NCBI RefSeq assembly: GCF_030684315.1
Contig: NC_081384.1
Location: 21,056,818 to 21,120,817, forward strand
Direction of reading: 5' to 3'
Origin: Stegostoma tigrinum
Lineage: Eukaryota
DNA length: 64,000 nucleotides
Shown one piece after another: positions 284 through 64,000 of this stretch; the stretch's first letter is position 1; every line of letters starts with the position of its first letter. The notes below the pieces were generated by a model. The model was not told the origin of the DNA and did no database searches. It worked only from the letters and a program-made list of their open reading frames with translations. Both the position numbers and the translations under genes were made by a program.

Positions 284-511
284 TGAAAACCGAAAAAACT
301 GCAGATGCTGTAAATCAGGAACAAAAGCTGCGGAAAAGCTCAGCAGGTCTGGCAGCATCTGTGAAGGAAAAACAGAGTTAACGTTTTGGGTCTGGTGACT
401 ATTCCTCAGAATAGGCCCCCAGCCGTACTGGATTTGAAATATTAGCTCTGTTTCTCACACCACAGATGCTGCCTCTCCTGCTGAGTTTCTCCAATGTTCT
501 ACGTATTTGTT
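284..511. mobile_element. Penelope-like element terminal fragments (older subfamily), inverted pair
   Basis: GAACTGCAGATGCTG-like ...CTCAGCAGGTCTGGCAGCATCTG...AACGTTTTGGGTC..CCTCAG (284-410), followed by a diverged opposite-orientation copy (~430-511). Confidence 0.6.
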
Positions 512-3570: not shown

Positions 3571-5479
3571 CTTGAAATTCCCTACATTCTCCCTGTTTGA
3601 CTTCTGAAGAATTCTGAAGAAATAGGTATCAATATTTTACCAAAAGAATCCCATCCGCAAACAATTCAGAGTCTTTTTTAATGCATTTTCTACATTTATA
3701 ACCACAGGAATTCTGACTAATTGGTGTAAAATGATGCCCTTCCAAATTTTTCGTGATATATGCTGATCAAATTACACAAGGTAATTCAGAATTGTAACTA
3801 AAACTCAATATGCAAACAGTTTACAAACTGAAAGAGGCTGGTCTGAGACTTTGCCACATGTTACAATACAGTTAATAGCTTATCTGCGACTACACTGCAA
3901 CTGAAATCCTTCAGGCATTCAGGGTGTTCCAATACTCTTTTAAAAATATACCAAGAATACCAACTAGCCCCATGTGTACCTGACGGCTAAAATAAATGAT
4001 TTTATATTTTGTTCAAAAACCTTTGATATCGTCATCAAATAAAGATTAAAAAGAAGATTGCAGTTCAAACAAAGGCAGCTTTGAAATCAGAAGGTGAATA
4101 CAATCCTTCCATTGGATTCTTAACTTCCTCCTTTTTTTGTAAGAAAGGCAATTAAAAGTAGAGTCTGCTAAAACAGTTACTCCATGCTGGACCTCAGCTA
4201 CAGGAACTTGTGATCTATTTGATTTATGTCTTAAAGAAATGCCAGACGCAAGGCTGAACATGATCGGAGTCACTACTATTAAGTTAGCCAACACCCCCCA
4301 AGGAGAACCATACAATTTAGCTTACAGATCATTGCCTTCTTAAAACTTAACCACAAAATTGGTAAACTAACGTAACGACCATCTTTACACTGCCACGAGA
4401 TCACTCGATGAGTTTAAATAGAACAATTGGTGATCTCCCTACATTATCACCCCATGAAAAACATAAGATTAACACCAATCACAATGTTCACAATGCATGC
4501 ATAAATTTTAGGCTAGTCCTTAGGATGAGTTTGTTCCATTTTTTCATTGCTTAATGAAGAACAGATTAATCGCATATGTGCAGGAGGAACAAGATACTTC
4601 TGGACGAAAAAAAGGATGGCTAAATTAGAAAGAAAAGTCTTGGCAGATCATTGTCGGATGATATGTTACAGCTGGGTGCACATCGAACACTGGAAAGCTG
4701 AGAGGAAACACAATGCTAACATATGCAGAGTCAGTCAGAGGTACAAAGCTTTGCATAAACTTTGCAAAATCTTCAAAAAATGCTTGTGATTTATTCAGTA
4801 ATACTCTTAAACACTGCTGGGTGGTTTTTCTAAAGAAGATATTTTAAAAATTAAGAATGATAATGATTGCTGGCTTCTACATGTCAGTAATTAAGGTCAT
4901 TTTTAACCAAGATATTGCATTGTCAACTTCTCCATTAACTTGCATCTCACTTGATTAAATTAGCATAATCATGCACAAAATGGACCCTTTTTTAAACTCA
5001 AAGAGGAAAACTAAAGCCTTCCAAACCATTTAGTCTGTGTCTATTTTCTCCACAAAAAGAACTGGGCAGTACGAAAGACTGATTGGGTGGACTGATTTGA
5101 AAGTCACTGCATACTGAATTAATAAAAAGTGTAATTTCACATGTGCAAGAATTCAGTTAACTCTTTGACTACTGGTAACTGATTCCACTTTCAACAAGGA
5201 CACATTTAAAAAATACTATCTGGGCAAAAGGTTTTGATTAATCTGCTTTCAATCACACGGTCTAGAGGTGATTAAAATATCAGACTTGTGACGATGAGTT
5301 TGTCAGGAAAAGCCCTCAAATGTTTAAGTATATTCCTGCTAATATAATGTCATAATGAGCATTAATTTTTATACCTAATGATGCTTGGATATCCTATGTT
5401 CAATTCATAAGCCAGGTTATGTTAATGAAAAATGTTTTTAACCTCATATTTACACAATTGTAATTGTAACTTGAATTCT

Positions 5480-6420
5480 CCTGCCCATTGTCTCTGGTGT
5501 CCTCCAAGGATCTGCAGTTGACTCTTTCCATTTTCTTATCGACACTCTGTTCCTCAGTGACATTCCTCATAAGAGTCTCAGTTTCCTAACATATGTTGAT
5601 GACACCGAAGCCATAGCTCACCACCAACTCCCTTGAATCCTACATTGTGTCTAAATTGACAGAATGCTTGTCTGACATCCAGTACTGAATGAAAAGATGC
5701 TGCCTCATATTGCAAAGACTGCAAATATATTGCCTTTTCTCCCAGCTACAGACTGTACTCCACACTGATTTGGCTTGCTCACAGCCAGCTTTTGGAGTGA
5801 ACAGAACATTTGCCACAAACTCCCTGTCCAGGGTCCAAGATTGACTGTTCACCTCTCTAATCAGTCTGCCTCACTCCTTTATTTTTCTCCTTTTCAGCAT
5901 TCCTTAAAATCCCACCTCTTATGTGGCTCAGTGCCAACTTCTGTTTTATGACACTCTCATGAAGTGCCTTAGGCTGTTTTACTAGGTTGAAGGCACTATA
6001 TAAATACAAGATGTTGTGGTTCTGGCTGTGCCTGTTGCTTCACATCCTTCCCTGAGCCCATCAACTTAAATTTCCTCTAAGGAAGCCACCACATGAGATC
6101 CAAATGCACATTTATCTCTAATTTCCTATCTCTCCTAATTTTGTTCCCAAGCTCACTTTGACTTCTAGACCCCAACTTGCTCACTCTCTCCAATTCCCAC
6201 TAATTATTGACAATCCAATTTCCTTTCCTTGTCCAAAGTTAGGTGATATTTTTAACAAATCTCTCGCTTTAGGTTCTGTCTCCCTATCTTTTAAATCTGC
6301 CTTTGTTAACCCTCTCCTCAAAAATGCAACACTAAACCCCCTTACCCTTAAAAACTACCACATTATATTCAGCCTTCATTTCCTCTCCAAAGTCTTTCAA
6401 CATTGTAATGACTAGATGCA
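5480..6420 (+). mobile_element. L2-clade LINE fragments
   Basis: GVLQGS and YVDDT (RT) remnants at 5495-5550; L2-type 3' tail GGCACTATATAAATACAAGATGTTG at ~5992-6016; PLLKNATLNP..LKNY remnant at ~6310-6360. Confidence 0.65.
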
Positions 6421-6707
6421 ATGTGAAGTTTCCCAATGTGTTACATTTTCATATAGGATACTCCAAACCAGAGGGATGAACTAGTGCCTCTATTTTTTTA
6501 ATTACCCATTCTCTTTGTAGAGTGCAACAAGGTTAAACATGATCCCTTCACTTGTGGGCACCTTTCTCCCAAACCCATATTAATTTATGATTTGAAAAGA
6601 ATCAATTTAACCATGCTTTCTTCAGTTAAAAAAAGGAGTGTGTTTATTATTTATTATATGTGAGAAGAATTAGTAACACCACCCACATGCACACAGATTG
6701 GAAATTA

Positions 6708-8235
6708 TGTGCTGAATCTTATGCTCTTTTGGCTAAGTGCTTGCTGCATTGAGATTTTTGGAGAGATTCTCAACTGAAGGCCCAGCATGATTCCTCACCA
6801 TTCCTTACCAAATGAACCTTATTAACCACCTACCTCACCGCTCGCATCCAAATGCAGCCCCATCTTACCACACTCCATTCCCAGAACAATTTCAGCAGGA
6901 AGACTCTGCATCTGTTGTGCCCACTTCATTGGTAAAAGTCAATTATACACCCAGCTAAGCACTGCCGGTGTTGAACTGCCCTGGACAGTTACTGATATGT
7001 ACCCCAGAAATGCTAGACGGGGAGAAACTGACATCCCTCTGTGAATGTGTGTGCCTGGAAGTCCTGCTGGATGGGGTGATGCAGGCGTGGGATGCCTACT
7101 TCCCCTAAAACCAGCTGTGGAGGCCATTGTCTGCCTGTTCCGACACTACACATGGGTCATTGCGATCTCAGCTTCTGGACAAATGCACAGCATCGTAGCA
7201 GGGAGGTCAATGGCCTTCTCTACTCTGCCAAAGTAAGTGCTATCACCTTCTTGCTGATACAACACTTTCTCTCTTCTATTGCACCTATCTCTCACCAAGG
7301 CTAATTGGGGACCATTCTCACTATTTTCTGCAATGTCTTCCCTCATTCATTCTCACATCCACTTCCTCCTCCTTCCCACTCCTCAAAACCACCAACCCTG
7401 TATGCCCTCTGAGCTGTGCCATCACTCATTCAAGATACACTCCCTATTTGCACCAACTGTAACAGCTATGCCATCAAATTTTATGTCCCTTAATGCTTGT
7501 CTTCCTCCTATTCCAGGAGGTAAACAGCCCACAAAGGGACAAACAATATCAGGACAGGTGGTGAGCTGCCTGACATTTGACTGTATCTGAGCCTCTGAAG
7601 TGGTATCGGAGGTTGCACCAGAACTCGCTGTGCATAAGCTATCCCCCTTGACTTGACTGAAGACTGCAAAATACATCATGTTTCCTGGCTTTAAATGTGT
7701 GCTAAATGGTGAGCCAAGACAGAAGTGAAATGAGCCTAGTATATCTAACTGAGTGGGCAAAGTGCAAAATGGTAATTTGATGCAATTCCTGGCAGGGATG
7801 ATCTGAGTATCCAGGTAAGCCCAGAACTGAGTTTCTCAAGCAATTTCTGGTTTTGTTTCAGATTTCCAGCATCTGCAGTTCTTTGTTCTATTTTCATCCA
7901 GAGACGCTGCTTGGATTAGTCCACGAGTGGGGTGTGTGTCCCTGACTGCGTGGTATCTTTGCAGCAGGTTTATAATGAGAGCTGCTGGTGAAGCCCAAGG
8001 TATAGCATTGATGTACAGAAGCATCCTGCAACTGAATCAGAGATGTGCCTTGAGGGTCTTAGAGGCTGGCAGGTTGGATTCCAATATCTGTGGCTAGGGT
8101 ATGTGTAACCTGTGATGTGGAGTGTGCCCTGAAATATTGGTACCTGTATCCAACATTGATGCACTTGGGAAGTGGGCTTGCAACCTGAAATCATCAGATC
8201 CCTGCTTTGCTTTTAATGTGGAGAATTTTCAACCA
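6708..8235 (+). mobile_element. Harbinger/PIF-derived non-autonomous element with Myb/SANT-like remnant
   Basis: 5' end similar to 18040-18170; decayed LEVLLDGV...REVNGLL|GTAAGT exon; interrupted by a PLE fragment at ~7826-7890. Confidence 0.5.
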
Positions 8236-20532: not shown

Positions 20533-20702
20533 TAAAAACCAAAAGAACTGTGGGTGCTGTAAATCAAGAACAAAAATAGAAGTTTCAGGTCCGGTGACCA
20601 GTTCTGAGGAAGCGTCACCTGGCTCAAAATGTTAACACTGATTTTTTCTTCATAGATGCTGCCAGATCTGCTGAGCTTTTCCAGCAACTTCTGTTTTTGT
20701 TT
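20533..20702. mobile_element. Penelope-like inverted-terminus insertion (older subfamily)
   Basis: 36-bp tail + inverted ends AACAAAAATAGAAGTT / AACTTCTGTTTTTGTT; decayed hammerhead core CTGAGGA at 20604; flanking ATTCTACA direct repeat. Confidence 0.7.
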
Positions 20703-21975: not shown

Positions 21976-22054
21976 TGTTGCAGCATTTTGCTATTTATCA
22001 GTGTTCCAAAATGTCCATTAACTATTGCAGCTATGCAAGTATTCCTATATTGCA

Positions 22055-22277
22055 GAGATAATGGGAACTGCAGATGCTGGAGATTCCAAGATAATAAAAT
22101 GTGAGGCTGGATGAACACAGCAGGCCAAGCAGCATCTCAGGAGCACAAAAGCTGACGTTTCGGGCCTAGACCCTTCATCAGAGCCTCTGATGAAGGGTCT
22201 AGGCCCGAAACGTCAGCTTTTGTGCTCCTGAGATGCTGCTTGGCCTGCTGTGTTCATCCAGCCTCACATTTTATTAT
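22055..22277. mobile_element. Young Penelope-like inverted-terminus insertion (palindromic)
   Basis: 36-bp tail 22055-22090; perfect 93-bp inverted arms 22091-22183 / 22185-22277; TSD TATTCCTATATTGCA at 22040-22054 and 22275-22289. Confidence 0.85.
22187..22214 (+). ncRNA. Minimal type I hammerhead ribozyme core (PLE-type); mirror copy on - strand at 22154-22181
   Basis: CUGAUGA-A-GGG(UCUAGG)CCC-GAAA-CGUC: conserved boxes, stem II, palindromic ACGU in place of stem III, GUC cleavage triplet. Confidence 0.65.
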
Positions 22278-23419
22278 TCCTATATTGCAATTCTATTTGC
22301 CCAAATAAATCAAAATACATTTGATTTTACAGTTGAATTAGGCTTTCTAATACAAATTATTACGCCTTAACTTTAATAAAAGTCACTGCATATTGATCGA
22401 TATGCAACTGTTACACGATTTGAATAAAACATTGATTTTCAAATTCTTCAAGCATCATTCCCCCAGGACTGCTATGACTGAGAATTACTAAATAAAGAAC
22501 CAAGATCACAAGCCCATGAAATAGCAATATATGAAACATAAGCTTATGTATTATACCACTGAACTGGCCAATCAACCATTTTGATGAAAGAATAAAGATG
22601 CAGGTGATCTAGATGAGTATTTTCAGCATTTTATGTTTCTGAAATATTATCAATCCAGTATGTTGAGGTGCCATTTCAAAATATATATCATGTATACTGC
22701 TGTTGGGCACTTGAACTAATCATCCAATGATTTGTGAAATAGGTATTATAATTTTGTTCACAAAAGCAATGATAAATGCCAATTATAATTTCTAGAAAGC
22801 GGGAAGATGGTATTTGCATTATAATTGTAGTCAACCTTTCTAAAGTGTTATAGTTCATCACAACAGGTGAAAATAACAGTAGTTTCTAACATACAGAAAG
22901 TCAACTCTTAAGTGCCAATTTAGTTAAAGTTGCTGTACATTTGGGTTAAGAAATTCAAACCGTGCACTGATGAGACTGCAGCAACTAATTCCTCATTTGA
23001 ATGACCTGGGACCTCATTTCTAACAAGCCAGAAAGAAGACACCAACTTACGGGTGAATTAGGCCATTTCTGCATTACAGTCACAATTAGCCTGATGAGGT
23101 AAAAGCCAAGAGGAAACGGTGGCATTATAGGTGTGGAGGATATGCTTTCTTCACACTATACATCGTTCATAACAATTCAAATTTGACATTCCATAAAGTG
23201 CAGTAAAGATCAGCTTCTTTCAATACACTACATGAGCTACTTCACCACACTTGCTGTCACAGACTATATTTACAAAAACAAACATTTGCAGTTGCCAAGG
23301 GGTTCTACAAATTGATCTTTTGGTTTTTAAAGACAGTGTAGGTCCTGTCAGCAATACTGGAGTATTAGATGATTGTTTAGTGCTTAACAAAAGTCTGTTG
23401 GTATAGTATGGTATACTAG

Positions 23420-27242: not shown

Positions 27243-27331
27243 AGATAATAAAGTGTGGAGCTGGATGAACACAGCAGGCCAAGCAGCATCTCAGGGGCAC
27301 AAAAGCTGACGTTTCGGGCCTAGACCCTTCA
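27243..27331 (-). mobile_element. Young PLE terminal fragment
   Basis: Near-identical to the 22089-22178 arm; truncated at CCCTTCAT inside the hammerhead CUGAUGA box. Confidence 0.8.
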
Positions 27332-29558
27332 TGGCTTTTGTGCTGGTTGACAAGTCTGATGCAGTGCTGTGACTGTCACCAGGGGTAGGGAGAGAGGTAG
27401 GTCTGGCAGGAATGGGGATTTAAAACTACAGTTGGCATAAATCTGAACCATGGAAACAGACATGTGGAGACTGTTTAAGGAGCAGCTTTTGCGAATGATG
27501 TATAAATTGTTCCTCTGAGACAGGTAAGAAGGGGTAAGATTAAGGAGCCTTGGATGACGGGAACAGAGGTGCTTCTCGTCAAAAAGAAAAAGGCAGCTTA
27601 CGTAAGGTGGAGGAAGCAAGGGTCTAGCACAGCTTTAGAGGATTACAGGCTTGCTCGGAAGGAGCTCAAAAGTGGACTGAGGAGGGTCAGGAGGGGGCAC
27701 GATAAAGGCCTGGCAGGAAGGATCAGGGAGAGCCCAAAAGCATTTTACTCCTACGTGAGGTATAAGAGAATGATCAGGGAGAAGGTAGGGGCGATCAGGG
27801 ATAGCATAGCGAACTTGTGCATGGAGTCTGAGCAGATAGGGGAAGCCCTAAATGAGTTTTTTGGTTTAGTTTTCACTAAGGAAAGGGATCTTGTTGTGAA
27901 TGAGAACTTTGAGGAGCAGGAAAACAGGCTTGAACAGATCAAGATTGAGGAAGTTGATGTGCTGGAGATTTTGGCAAACATTAAGATTGATAAGTCCCCA
28001 GGGCCAGACCAGATTTATCCTAGGTTGCTCCGGGAAGCGAGAAAGGAGGTTGCTAAGCCGCTGGCAAAGATCTTTGCTTCCTCACTGTCCACAGGAGTCA
28101 TACCGGAAGATTGGAGGGAGGCAAATGTTGTTCCTCTTTTCAAGAAAGGGAATAGGGAAATCCCTGGAAATTACAGATTAGTCAGTCTTACGTCTGTGGT
28201 CAGCAAGGTTTTGGAAAGAATTCTGAGGGATAAGATTTATGGCTATTAGGAAAAGCATAGCGTGATTAAAGGGAGTCAGCATGGCTTTGTGAGGGGCAGG
28301 TCATGCCTTACAAATCTTATTGAGTTCTTTGAGGAAGTCACGAGACAGGTTGATGAGGGTCGTGCAATGGATGTGGTGTACATGGACTTCAGCAAGGCAT
28401 TTGATAAGGTTCCCCACGGCAGGCTCATTCATAAAGTCGGGAGGTATGGGATACAGGGTGACTTGGCTGTCTGGATTCAGAATTGGTTGGCTGACAGGAG
28501 GCAGAGAGTGGTTGTAGATGGTAAGTATTCTGCCTGGAGGTCAGTGCTGAGTGGTGTCCCGCAGGGCTCTATTCTTGAGCCTCTGCTCTTTGTAGTTTTT
28601 ATAAATGACTTGGATGAGGAGGTTGAGGGGTGAGTTAGTATATTTGCTGATGACACAAAGGTTGGAGGTGCCATTGATAGTATCGAGGGCTATTGCAGGC
28701 TTCAGCGAGACATTGACAGAATGCAGAGCTGGGCTGAGAAATGGCAAATGGAGTTCAACCTGAATAAATGCAAGGTGATGCATTTTGGAAGGTCGAACTT
28801 AAATGCTGAATATAGGATTAAAGGCAGGATTCTCAGCAGTGTGGAGGAACAACGGGATCTTGGTGTTCAAGTGCATATCTCCCTCAAAGTTGCCACCCAA
28901 GTGAATAAGGTTGTTAAGAAAGCATATGGTGTTTTGGCTTTCATTAACAGGGGGATCAAGTTTAAGAGCCGCGAGGTTATGCTGCAGCTCTACAAAACCC
29001 TGGTGAGACCACACTTGGAATATGGTGTTCAGTTCTGGTTGCCCTATTATAGGAAAGATGTGGAGGCTTTGGAGAGGGTGCAAAGGAGGTTTACCAGGAT
29101 GCTGCCTGGAGTGGAGGGCTTGTCTTACGAGGAGAGGTTGACTGAGCTCGGACTTTTCTCTCTGGAGAGAAGGAGGAAGAGAGGTGACCTGATCAAGATG
29201 TACAAGGTAATGAGAGGCATGGATAGAGTCGATAGCCAGAGACTTTTCCCCAGGGCAGGATTGACTGCCATGAGGGGTCATAGTTTTAAGGTGTTAGGAG
29301 GAAGGTATAGAGGAGGCATCAGAGGGAGGTTCTTCACCCAGACAGTTGTGAGCGCATGGAATACTTTGCAAGTGGTAGTCATGGAAGCAGAGTCATTAGT
29401 GACATTTAAGCGACTGCTGGGCATGCACATGGACAGCAGTGAATTGAGGGGAGTGTAGGTTAGGTTATTTTATTTTTGGATTAGGATTATTCCACAGCAC
29501 AACATCGTGGGCCGAAGGGCCTGTACTGTGCTGTACTTTCCTATGTTCTATGTTCTAT
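27332..29558 (+). mobile_element. CR1-clade LINE (HER1-like), 5'-truncated, young; RT pseudogene
   Basis: ORFs 27554-28249, 28262-28633 and 28721-29458 share one frame broken by TAG and TGA; motifs [38 protein letters not shown]; 3'UTR GGGCCGAAGGGCCTGT and (CTATGTT)n tail. Confidence 0.95.
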
Positions 29559-41159: not shown

Positions 41160-42600
41160 CACAGAATCAAAGAGTTATTTCGGAGCAGAAGGAGGCCATT
41201 CAGCCATCGTGTCTGCATCAATACTCTGTGCATTTTTTTTCTTTGTGCCATTCTCTTGCTTCTTATGTGTAGCCCGGAACATTGGATGATTATTTAAATG
41301 GAAAATGTTCTCTTGAATGCCTCAATTCAATCTGCCTCCACCACACTTCCGGTCGTGCATTCCATATGCTAACCACTCACTGTGTGAAAAGGTTTTTCCC
41401 ACTTCACATTTGTTTTTCTTGCAAAACACTTTAAAACTGTATCCTCTGGTTTTTGATCCATTTAACAGTGGGAAGCAGTTTCTCCTTACCCATTCTCTCT
41501 ATATCACTCACAATTTTGAAAGCTTCTATCAACTCTCCACTTAGTCTTCTCTCCAAGGAAAACAGTCCCCACTTCTCCAAGCTTTTCGCTTGGCATATCC
41601 ATAGAATTATATTCATAAACCTCTTCTGCACTGTCTCCAATGCATTCATACCCTTCCTCTGCTGTGGAACACAGAAATGCACATAATACTCCAGCTGACC
41701 TCTCACCAGAGTCTCTTGTCAGTTCATCATAACCCTACTGACCAACTAGACCCCCTGCCCTTGGTTCTCTATGCCCCTATTCACAAAACCCACAACAGTA
41801 TATGCTTAATCTGTACCTACCCTGCCACCTTCAATAACTGATGTACATATAAACCCAGATAATAAAATGTGAGGCTGGATGAACACAGCAGGCCAAGCAG
41901 CATCTCAGGAGCACAAAAGCTCATATACAAGAGCACATATAAACCCAGATCTTTATGCTCCTGTATAACATTTAGAACAGTACCCTTTTTTCTGCATTTT
42001 TTTTACCAGAGTGTATTACTTCACACTTCTCCACATTGAGCTTATCCTGATATCAATCCACCCACTCCTCCAATATTAGTGTTGTTTTGGAATTCTACAA
42101 TGTCCTCCTCACAGTTTACGATTCTACCAAATTTTGTGTCGTCTGCAAATGTTGAAATTACCCCTGTACACAAGATCTAAATCCTTTGTATATCAGAAAA
42201 AGAGAAACTCCCAGCACTGACCCCTGGGGAACTCCACTACAAAACTTCTTCCAGCCTGAAAAGTACCCACAATTAGTCTTTCTCCCCTATCTCCCAGACA
42301 ATGTTGCGTCCATTTTGCTACTGTTCCTTTTATTCCATAACCTATAAATGTAGTCACAAGGCTTTCGTGCGGCATGGTATCCAATGCCCTTTAAAAGTCC
42401 ACGTGCACCACATTAATACTGCGCCTATTACCTCTTCAAAAATCTTCAGCTAGTTCGAATCAATTTTCCTTGAACGAGCGCATGATGACTCTTCCCAAAT
42501 AACTCAGTTTTGTTCCACGTGTCTATTAATTTGATGCCGAATAATTGCTACTAGAAGTCTTTCTCCCCACCACCGAAGTTAACCTGACTGGTCTAAATCA
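41160..42600 (-). mobile_element. CR1 LINE 3' fragment (decayed), interrupted by a PLE fragment
   Basis: Minus ORF LEYYVHFCVPQQRKGMNALETVQKRF..LEKWGLFSLERRLSGELIEAFKI; FADDTK remnant near 42130-42148. Confidence 0.85.
41861..41934 (-). mobile_element. Young PLE micro-insertion with 16-bp TSD
   Basis: 41861-41921 is identical to 22093-22153; ACATATAAACCCAGAT duplicated at 41845-41860 and 41935-41950. Confidence 0.85.
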
Positions 42601-45836: not shown

Positions 45837-63786
<17,950 letters not shown>

Positions 63787-64000
63787 GTAAGTCCATATCT
63801 TGAATTATTTCAAACTAATAATAACTGAAATCCTCTTCAAGGCTGTTGTGTCAGGTTCTGTTGACATTTGGTACTTTGTTCATTTTGGAATCCAGAGATC
63901 ATTAGCCATGGTGATATATTGTCCGAAATTTTGCAGCAATAATGACAGCAAAGTAATGAGTGTTCGCGGTCATTAGTCCATTGAAAAAAAACTGACTGTA

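Follow-up and report, generated by a model that had tools for sequence, protein, structure and literature searches.

A palindromic repeat near 22 kb of the DNA analyzed here (a 64,000-nucleotide stretch of contig NC_081384.1 of Stegostoma tigrinum, hereafter the window) raises three questions: whether it carries a true hammerhead ribozyme, which element brought it there and whether this ribozyme has left traces of its activity in the genome.

Hammerhead cores in the window

The first-pass annotation had placed a hammerhead core between positions 22154 and 22214, and two intact minimal type I cores were indeed located there (Table 1). They lie on both strands, head to head, at the centre of an inverted repeat, and read CUGAUGA-A-GGGU/CUAG/GCCC-GAAA-CGUC; the position of their predicted scissile bonds follows the standard hammerhead numbering (PMC4209133). 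The type I order, the CUGANGA and GAAA boxes and the NUH cleavage triplet are all present. A loose core pattern gave 16 matches in the window compared to 7.1 ± 2.5 in shuffles and is, taken alone, weak evidence for a hammerhead. One CUGAUGA...GAAAC-like match (23091-23124, plus strand), outside the Penelope-like element (PLE) repeat and devoid of a GUH triplet, is probably due to chance. The search with hammerhead models that the annotation had proposed brought no support: in a scan of the window, none was found among the nine Rfam matches at E ≤ 5, an absence that is plausible for a motif devoid of helix III. Since the loose pattern is weak and Rfam returned no hammerhead, the identity of the motif rests on its copy number, its carrier and covariation. 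The 3.2-Gb genome contains 92,176 exact copies of the 28-nt core (45,976 and 46,200 by strand), compared to zero for the reversed control.

Table 1. Hammerhead cores, PLE copies and insertion features in the window
Feature	Position	Strand	Basis or remark
Decayed core, older family F3, G12A	380-409	-	Sequence
Decayed core, older family F3, G12A, stem III altered	20604-20633	+	Sequence
Left target-site duplication, 15 bp	22040-22054		Same 15-mer at 22040 and 22275
Left arm, 5′-truncated PLE leader/pLTR end	22053-22183	-	99.2% identity to full-length copy L312
38-nt PLE tail, left arm only	22053-22090	-	Left arm matches parent from C3-2 to C3+128, right arm only to C3+90
Minimal type I hammerhead core	22154-22181	-	Predicted scissile bond 22154 (C17)/22153 (A1.1); sequence pattern and fold
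Single junction base between arms	22184		Both arms end 2 nt upstream of C3
Right arm, C3-2 to C3+90	22185-22277	+	Comparison with parent element
Minimal type I hammerhead core	22187-22214	+	Predicted scissile bond 22214/22215; sequence pattern and fold
Right target-site duplication, 15 bp	22275-22289		Same 15-mer at 22040 and 22275
Copy truncated within core, begins at A6	27243-27332	-	Alignment; C3-U4-G5 absent
Copy with 5′ end exactly at A1.1, first base past predicted cut	41854-41921	-	Comparison with parent
Decayed core, older family, GAGU/ACUC stem II, G12A	47022-47053	-	Sequence
Internally deleted mini-tandem: pLTR end, leader, about 32 ORF codons, second pLTR end	54861-55294	-	Alignment

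In the fetched DNA, the copies fall into families that differ by their stem I: CU/AG in F1 (n = 233, young), UU/AG in F2 (n = 39), AGUU/AACU in F3 (n = 38), UCA/UGA in F5 (n = 7) and UGCA/UGCG in F5b (n = 5). Stem II varies among them in length and sequence, with constant boxes, bulge and ACGU, in a search whose pattern itself demanded near-intact boxes; N7 is U, A or G and N17 is C or U. Most copies of F1, F2, F3 and F5 have the form GAAACGUY, with a palindromic 15.1-16.1 (ACGU) and no helix III. The base between A9 and 10.1 is a bulged A in 226 of the 233 F1 copies and a U in F5, and the commonest II.1 pair (G10.1-C11.1) is G-C. The palindromic stem III and the extra A before stem II that the annotation had mentioned are found at the family level. 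So is the variation of stem II around conserved boxes. Helices I and II covary: among 28 copies, 85.7% of the cells are paired compared to 62.0% after shuffling and 20-43% in slid structures (the rows were hand-picked and are related, and the shuffle count is not a probability), and all seven pairs of helices I and II show two-sided changes.

Judged on these features, the motif is the known minimal hammerhead ribozyme (min-HHR) carried by PLEs, and the ribozyme class, its carrier and the inverted layout have already been published. It shares with the PLE min-HHRs described by Cervera and De la Pena (2014, PMC4209133) (i) the type I order, the CUGANGA and GAAA boxes, the extra base between A9 and 10.1 and the G10.1-C11.1 pair, and (ii) the lack of helix III, the palindromic 15.2-16.2, and the occurrence mostly as solo truncated copies or as opposite-strand pairs. 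Helices II and I of F1 have 4 and 2 bp, whereas those of Schistosoma usually have 7-8 and 4-5 bp; a 2-bp helix I is also reported for Drosophila virilis (PMC4209133). The 92,176 exact copies found here compare with 4,000-9,000 copies reported for coelacanth and Xenopus in this same article, whose main text names no shark and whose supplements may list shark motifs.

The inverted repeat at 22 kb is perfect over 93 nt, with a 1-nt spacer. From its target-site duplication, its one-sided tail and the 99% identity of its arms to L312, this palindrome is one young PLE insertion. One-sided PLE tails have been described (PMC8557442, PMC11167929), and, by analogy with PAc, a Poseidon element of Anolis (Frangieh et al. 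2024, PMC11167929), the 38-nt tail would be the mark of a second start site of reverse transcription. No host exon was recognized near 22 kb among the 14 open frames of at least 110 codons found in 1-48 kb.

A fold check confirmed the three structural reservations or features listed by the annotation, namely a native stem I of 2 bp, a competing helix between CUGAUG and CGUCAG and an 8-bp stem I of the minus-strand copy. In the F1 monomer, the sequestering hairpin formed by this competing helix is predicted at -11.4 kcal/mol compared to -3.6 for the hammerhead register; a stable hairpin over the core is predicted in both F1 and F5, and unconstrained cofolding did not yield the active dimer, an outcome that weighs neither for nor against its formation. 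Such a poor free fold is not disqualifying, since the hammerhead of PAc cuts only with the help of its own protein (PMC11167929). A transcript across the whole palindrome is predicted to form a hairpin of about 93 bp (-191 kcal/mol) that overrides both cores, and because of this hairpin the palindromic copy itself is probably inert. The 8-bp stem I was considered as an activating feature and rejected, as the 93-bp hairpin dominates.

The other copies of the window bear out the annotation only in part. The 27.3-kb copy, which had been said to contain a complete core, begins at A6 and lacks CUG; it adjoins broken LINE reverse transcriptase frames (27506-29455, plus strand) that we take to be CR1/L2-like. 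In the 54.9-55.3-kb copy, one core (54915-54942) is intact as claimed and the other (55221-55248) has the sequence GAAACAUC, in which the stem III palindrome is broken. This remnant lies antisense in an intron of a fibrillar collagen gene, whose numerous short Gly-X-Y exons were seen on the plus strand from about 48,700 to 64,000. The copies at 380-409, 20604-20633 and 47022-47053 are decayed relatives, as had been stated; all belong to an older family and carry G12A. The copy at 41854-41921 has a 16-bp target duplication (41845, 41935) and a short filler. The annotation mentions neither this copy nor the target duplication and tail of the 22-kb insertion.

The parent element and its short inserts

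The annotation had suggested a recently active PLE as the carrier and a link to a reading frame encoding a reverse transcriptase (RT) and a GIY-YIG endonuclease (EN) elsewhere in the genome. Both were found. Among the first 30 loci of the exact-core list, long copies extend upstream from the core into the end of an ORF with YIDD, a Cys linker and GIY-YIG. A protein search of the genome (150 of 33,485 candidates were scored, and 20 loci were fetched, chosen mainly for long open frames) gave full ORFs of 1,073 and 1,080 aa in two of these 20 loci. The single ORF thus encodes a protein of about 1,075 aa with an RT carrying DKG and YIDD motifs, a Cys linker and, at the C-terminus, a GIY-YIG domain; the profile matches of the two ORFs (RVT_1, E = 4e-5 and 3.5e-4; GIY-YIG, E = 2e-4 and 4e-3) all fall just short of the Pfam cut-offs. 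L312 and L318 show the order inverted arm, truncated pLTR, ORF region and 3′ pLTR. In L312, to which the arms of the window palindrome are 99% identical, the ATG lies 166 nt downstream of C3, i.e., the ribozyme precedes the ORF.

The linker CNRRKCYTC at residue 903 fits the CX2-5CxxC motif that, between RT and EN, defines the Neptune/Nematis type (PMC8557442). Placed by this motif and not by a tree, the element is an EN+ PLE with a Neptune/Nematis-type linker. Like such EN+ PLEs (Craig et al. 2021, PMC8557442; Arkhipova et al. 2013, PMC3846280), it combines an RT, a Zn-finger-like Cys linker and, at the C-terminus, a GIY-YIG domain, and its copies include partial tandems, adjacent inverted copies, one-sided tails of 30-40 bp and target duplications. 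In contrast to the insertions described in these articles, the window copy consists of two arms of about 90-130 nt only. The element resembles PAc by its hammerhead in the pLTR/ORF-start region and differs from it by the Cys linker of its protein and by the position of the ATG, which is inside stem II in PAc (PMC11167929). Named reference PLE proteins were absent among the 120 protein matches listed, the closest of which comes from Chiloscyllium punctatum (78%). F5 is a separate PLE family, with its own GIY-YIG end and no pLTR sequence in common with F1.

The short copies could also belong to a non-coding ribozyme element that is independent and propagates itself in the manner of a SINE or retrozyme, in line with the annotation, which saw a self-cleaving module spread by short non-coding inserts. 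Non-LTR retrozymes, non-coding PLE-derived repeats with type I hammerheads that they resemble in this respect, have been reported in one chondrichthyan genome (Li, Clavereau, Pollet, 2026 preprint, 10.64898/2026.07.22.740005), and the genome contains 8,325 near-identical short fold-backs as well as a few 100-nt units in head-to-tail order that extend between the cut site and the end of the tail. We nevertheless consider this origin very improbable. The junction centres differ between copies, so that there is no single inherited master, the arms are 99% identical to full-length ORF-bearing copies, and the palindrome lacks upstream pLTR sequence and is predicted to fold as one long hairpin. By definition, each unit of a retrozyme carries a complete ribozyme and the units follow one another head to tail (10.64898/2026.07.22.740005), whereas the 22.1-kb copy is single and head-to-head and the pair at 54.9-55.3 kb, in which one core is broken, is a deleted element. 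Given their target duplication, tail and inverted arms, the short inserts look like truncation by-products of the autonomous element: they have the anatomy of its 5′-truncated products, and the palindrome is predicted to be locked in a hairpin.

Several other arrangements were observed. Minisatellites of 50 nt made of the PLE leader downstream of the cut site are found at the 3′ end of older copies (L035:7846-9966, L039:7891-8393, L041:6809-7372), and an older-family copy (L218, L219) is directly joined to (CCCTAA)n telomere-like repeats. Six F5 loci (L343, L366, L367, L376, L388, L398) have one and the same A-rich 3′ end, that of another element, joined into stem II, which is consistent with a LINE targeting the F5 ribozyme.

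Insertion 5′ ends at the core and at the predicted cut site

Among the short arms with a full core, 95 of 97 start 0-7 nt upstream of C3, and 148 other arms extend into the pLTR (these loci were partly selected by pattern). Genome-wide, both arms extend to the core start in 8,325 fold-back joints, i.e., the junction type seen at 22184. From these arm starts, we infer that the upstream stop is likely the 5′ end of the element RNA, 1-5 nt upstream of C3. The cap-G test failed in single-arm copies: an untemplated, cap-derived G was seen in 32 of 62 inverted joints, yet in only five of 22 single-arm copies, and was rejected as evidence. Subfamily variants are concordant between the two arms (0.90-0.96 compared to 0.54-0.74 expected, 50 pairs), so the arms derive from one source element; the sharing of rare variants between arms is low (three are shared and 36 are not). 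Of 21 inverted cases with one arm starting at A1.1, 18 have a partner arm that is likewise devoid of the core (scored by eye), pointing to a single RNA or a jointly cut dimer as the source of both. In five F5 loci (L369, L375, L382, L383, L419), the partner arms end about 12-20 nt upstream of C3, where the RNA of this family may start.

In F1, 5′ ends were counted genome-wide with a fixed exact anchor at positions C1.3 to C17, and the first 30 matches of each list, all on contig C1, were inspected. A non-C before A1.1 gave 5,848 matches, 25 of 30 being true ends automatically (24 after L069 was dropped by eye), compared to 2,357 matches with six true ends for a non-A before G1.2, 2,417 matches with ten true ends (eight by eye; several are A1.1 ends in which a C stands by chance) for a non-T before C17, and 584 matches with 21 true ends (20 by eye) for two mismatches before C1.3. 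With approximate detection factors, the estimated number of A1.1 ends is about 5,900 (4,500-6,800), compared to 660 (260-1,280) at G1.2, 700 (490-860) at C1.3 and 910 (420-1,560) at C17, the latter figure being an upper bound. When AGCT palindromes are removed, 1,247 A1.1 matches remain, of which 25 of 30 are true ends, or 15 without the 10 microhomology joints; the strictest count is 1,800 (1,100-2,400), and the A1.1 excess without AGCT joints is only about 2- to 2.5-fold, with an interval that overlaps that of C17. The first 50 of the 1,536 short fold-back joints comprise 28 centred on the AGCT at the cut, two on ACGT (p = 9e-7), whose palindrome is 5 nt from the cut, and 6-7 on GGCC (p = 5e-4), the remainder being asymmetric; an AGCT-centred joint alone is compatible with ends at A1.1, G1.2 or C1.3 alike. 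In an unbiased 970 kb, a sample too small to reveal a cut-site peak, one of 302 anchor hits starts at A1.1 and the ends smear across the core, satellite units and old families included.

Because the AGCT at the F1 cut is self-complementary, the test was repeated in F5, whose cut has no palindrome and leaves UGAAAAC. The comparison concerned U1.1 and G1.2, with all 60 and all 38 matches inspected and the upstream neighbour outside the count. True ends were 44 of 60 at U1.1 compared to 20-24 of 38 at G1.2 (24 by script, 20 by eye; p = 0.004-0.02), 16 matches being dropped at U1.1 (core variants or internal deletions) and 14-18 at G1.2. Blunt joints with both arms starting at U1.1 and no microhomology were found eight times, compared to zero at G1.2 (p = 0.008); two further joints with both arms at U1.1 carry a filler of 2 or 5 nt, compared to none at G1.2. 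The foot of the predicted hairpin differs between F1 and F5, and the peak tracks the scissile bond in both. This 5′-end peak at the scissile bond in two PLE families is likely a sign, albeit an indirect one read from genomic sequence, of RNA self-cleavage in vivo. No report of genomic 5′ ends at PLE hammerhead cut sites was found in the literature searched, which excluded subscription papers and some supplements.

Cut-type ends amount to about 5% of the exact-core count. Cleavage is therefore not required for insertion, in agreement with PAc, for which ribozyme mutants are reported to have no effect on insertion and the ribozyme to be dispensable in vitro (PMC11167929). The same article reports no RNA-seq reads ending at the cut site, whereas genomic 5′ ends are enriched there in the present genome.

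Three loci (L112, L113, L116; G000:C1:4383892, 4383992 and 6335855) contain the head-to-tail 100-nt units mentioned above, which span the leader from A1.1, at the cut site, to the end of the tail and would be expected if a cut leader were copied repeatedly or circularized; the F5 locus L353 shows a restart that resembles them.

Possible origin of the ends and comparison with other ribozyme-bearing elements

Two explanations of the ends invoke the same element without cleavage as their cause. Long cDNAs could anneal at the 4-nt AGCT or at other microhomologies and then be trimmed, the ribozyme ancestry being the same. AGCT palindromes indeed make up 11 of the 30 inspected A1.1 matches, and 10 of the 25 non-palindromic ends have a microhomology of 2-3 nt with the partner arm, such joints being common. 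The neighbouring palindromes of equal length are far less used (ACGT two and GGCC 6-7 times compared to 28 for AGCT), and F5, devoid of any palindrome at its cut, has its eight blunt zero-homology joints at U1.1 and none at G1.2; trimming after annealing is thus quite improbable. Alternatively, the RT could stall at the folded ribozyme, so that cDNAs would end near the 3′ foot of the fold whether the RNA is cut or not. The stable hairpin predicted over the core in both families is in favour of such a pause, which in F5 would mimic cleavage, as the 3′ edge of the predicted helix is C17. In F1, the 3′ edge of the hairpin is G1.2 and predicts ends at C1.3 or G1.2, yet these are about 2.5- to 9-fold rarer than A1.1 ends, and the scissile bond is the only position common to both families. 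We therefore regard stalling as unlikely, while giving it more weight than annealing and trimming.

The reading that we hold to be fairly probable is that the motif is the leader/pLTR hammerhead of a young and abundant PLE, that the window palindrome is a short inverted insertion of this element and that the ribozyme likely cuts a minority of the RNAs in vivo. The element RNA would start 1-5 nt upstream of C3, just before the core. By analogy with PAc, in which both target strands are cleaved and extended and two internal RT start sites define the tail (PMC11167929), the element protein would nick both target strands and reverse transcription would initiate within the RNA, at one site about 92 nt and another about 130 nt downstream of C3. 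Both of the resulting short cDNAs would extend as far as the 5′ end of the RNA and then be joined head to head; two-site priming and head-to-head joining would produce the target duplication, the one-sided tail and the palindrome. Most templates would be uncut, as reported for the main template of PAc (PMC11167929), giving arms that stop just before the core, as at 22184. Roughly one template in 20 would be cut after GUC, giving arms that start at position 1.1, as at 41921. Since free RNA is predicted to favour the hairpin that sequesters the core, cutting likely requires a dimer formed through the self-complementary ACGU and probably the help of the element protein; hammerhead cleavage as dimers (Lunse et al. 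2017, via the review PMC6765202) and protein-assisted cleavage in PAc (PMC11167929) have been described. For the junction palindromes of PLEs, Arkhipova et al. (2013, PMC3846280) proposed self-priming on an antisense template; in contrast to this model, ends located at the sense-strand cut site favour a sense template.

The F1 core contains an AUG that opens a frame of 13 codons and that cutting would remove. In R2 non-LTR elements, the end defined by the ribozyme is visible in genomic 5′ junctions. The present element resembles R2 in that a 5′ ribozyme, HDV-like in R2, would set the end of the template, and differs from it in that the cut RNA is the normal template of R2 (review PMC6765202) and apparently that of about 5% of the insertions here.

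The role of the ribozyme in endonuclease-bearing PLEs has been stated to be unclear (PMC8557442). On balance, we lean towards seeing in the ends described here the fossil trace of PLE hammerhead catalysis in vivo: cut RNA would have been the source of thousands of insertions, belonging to at least two unrelated families, with both arms often starting at the scissile bond. The cut leader, which still carries the RT start sites, would be a real retrotransposition template, both cDNAs would come from one RNA or from a jointly cut dimer, and the ribozyme, instead of being a required processing step, would serve as a switch by which a minority of RNAs lose their cap and an upstream AUG. If the 5′-end peak holds, insertion junctions would be the first in vivo readout of PLE hammerhead cleavage in the literature searched, they would provide a cheap assay, based on sequence only, for any genome with young PLEs, and they would constrain how inverted PLE insertions form.
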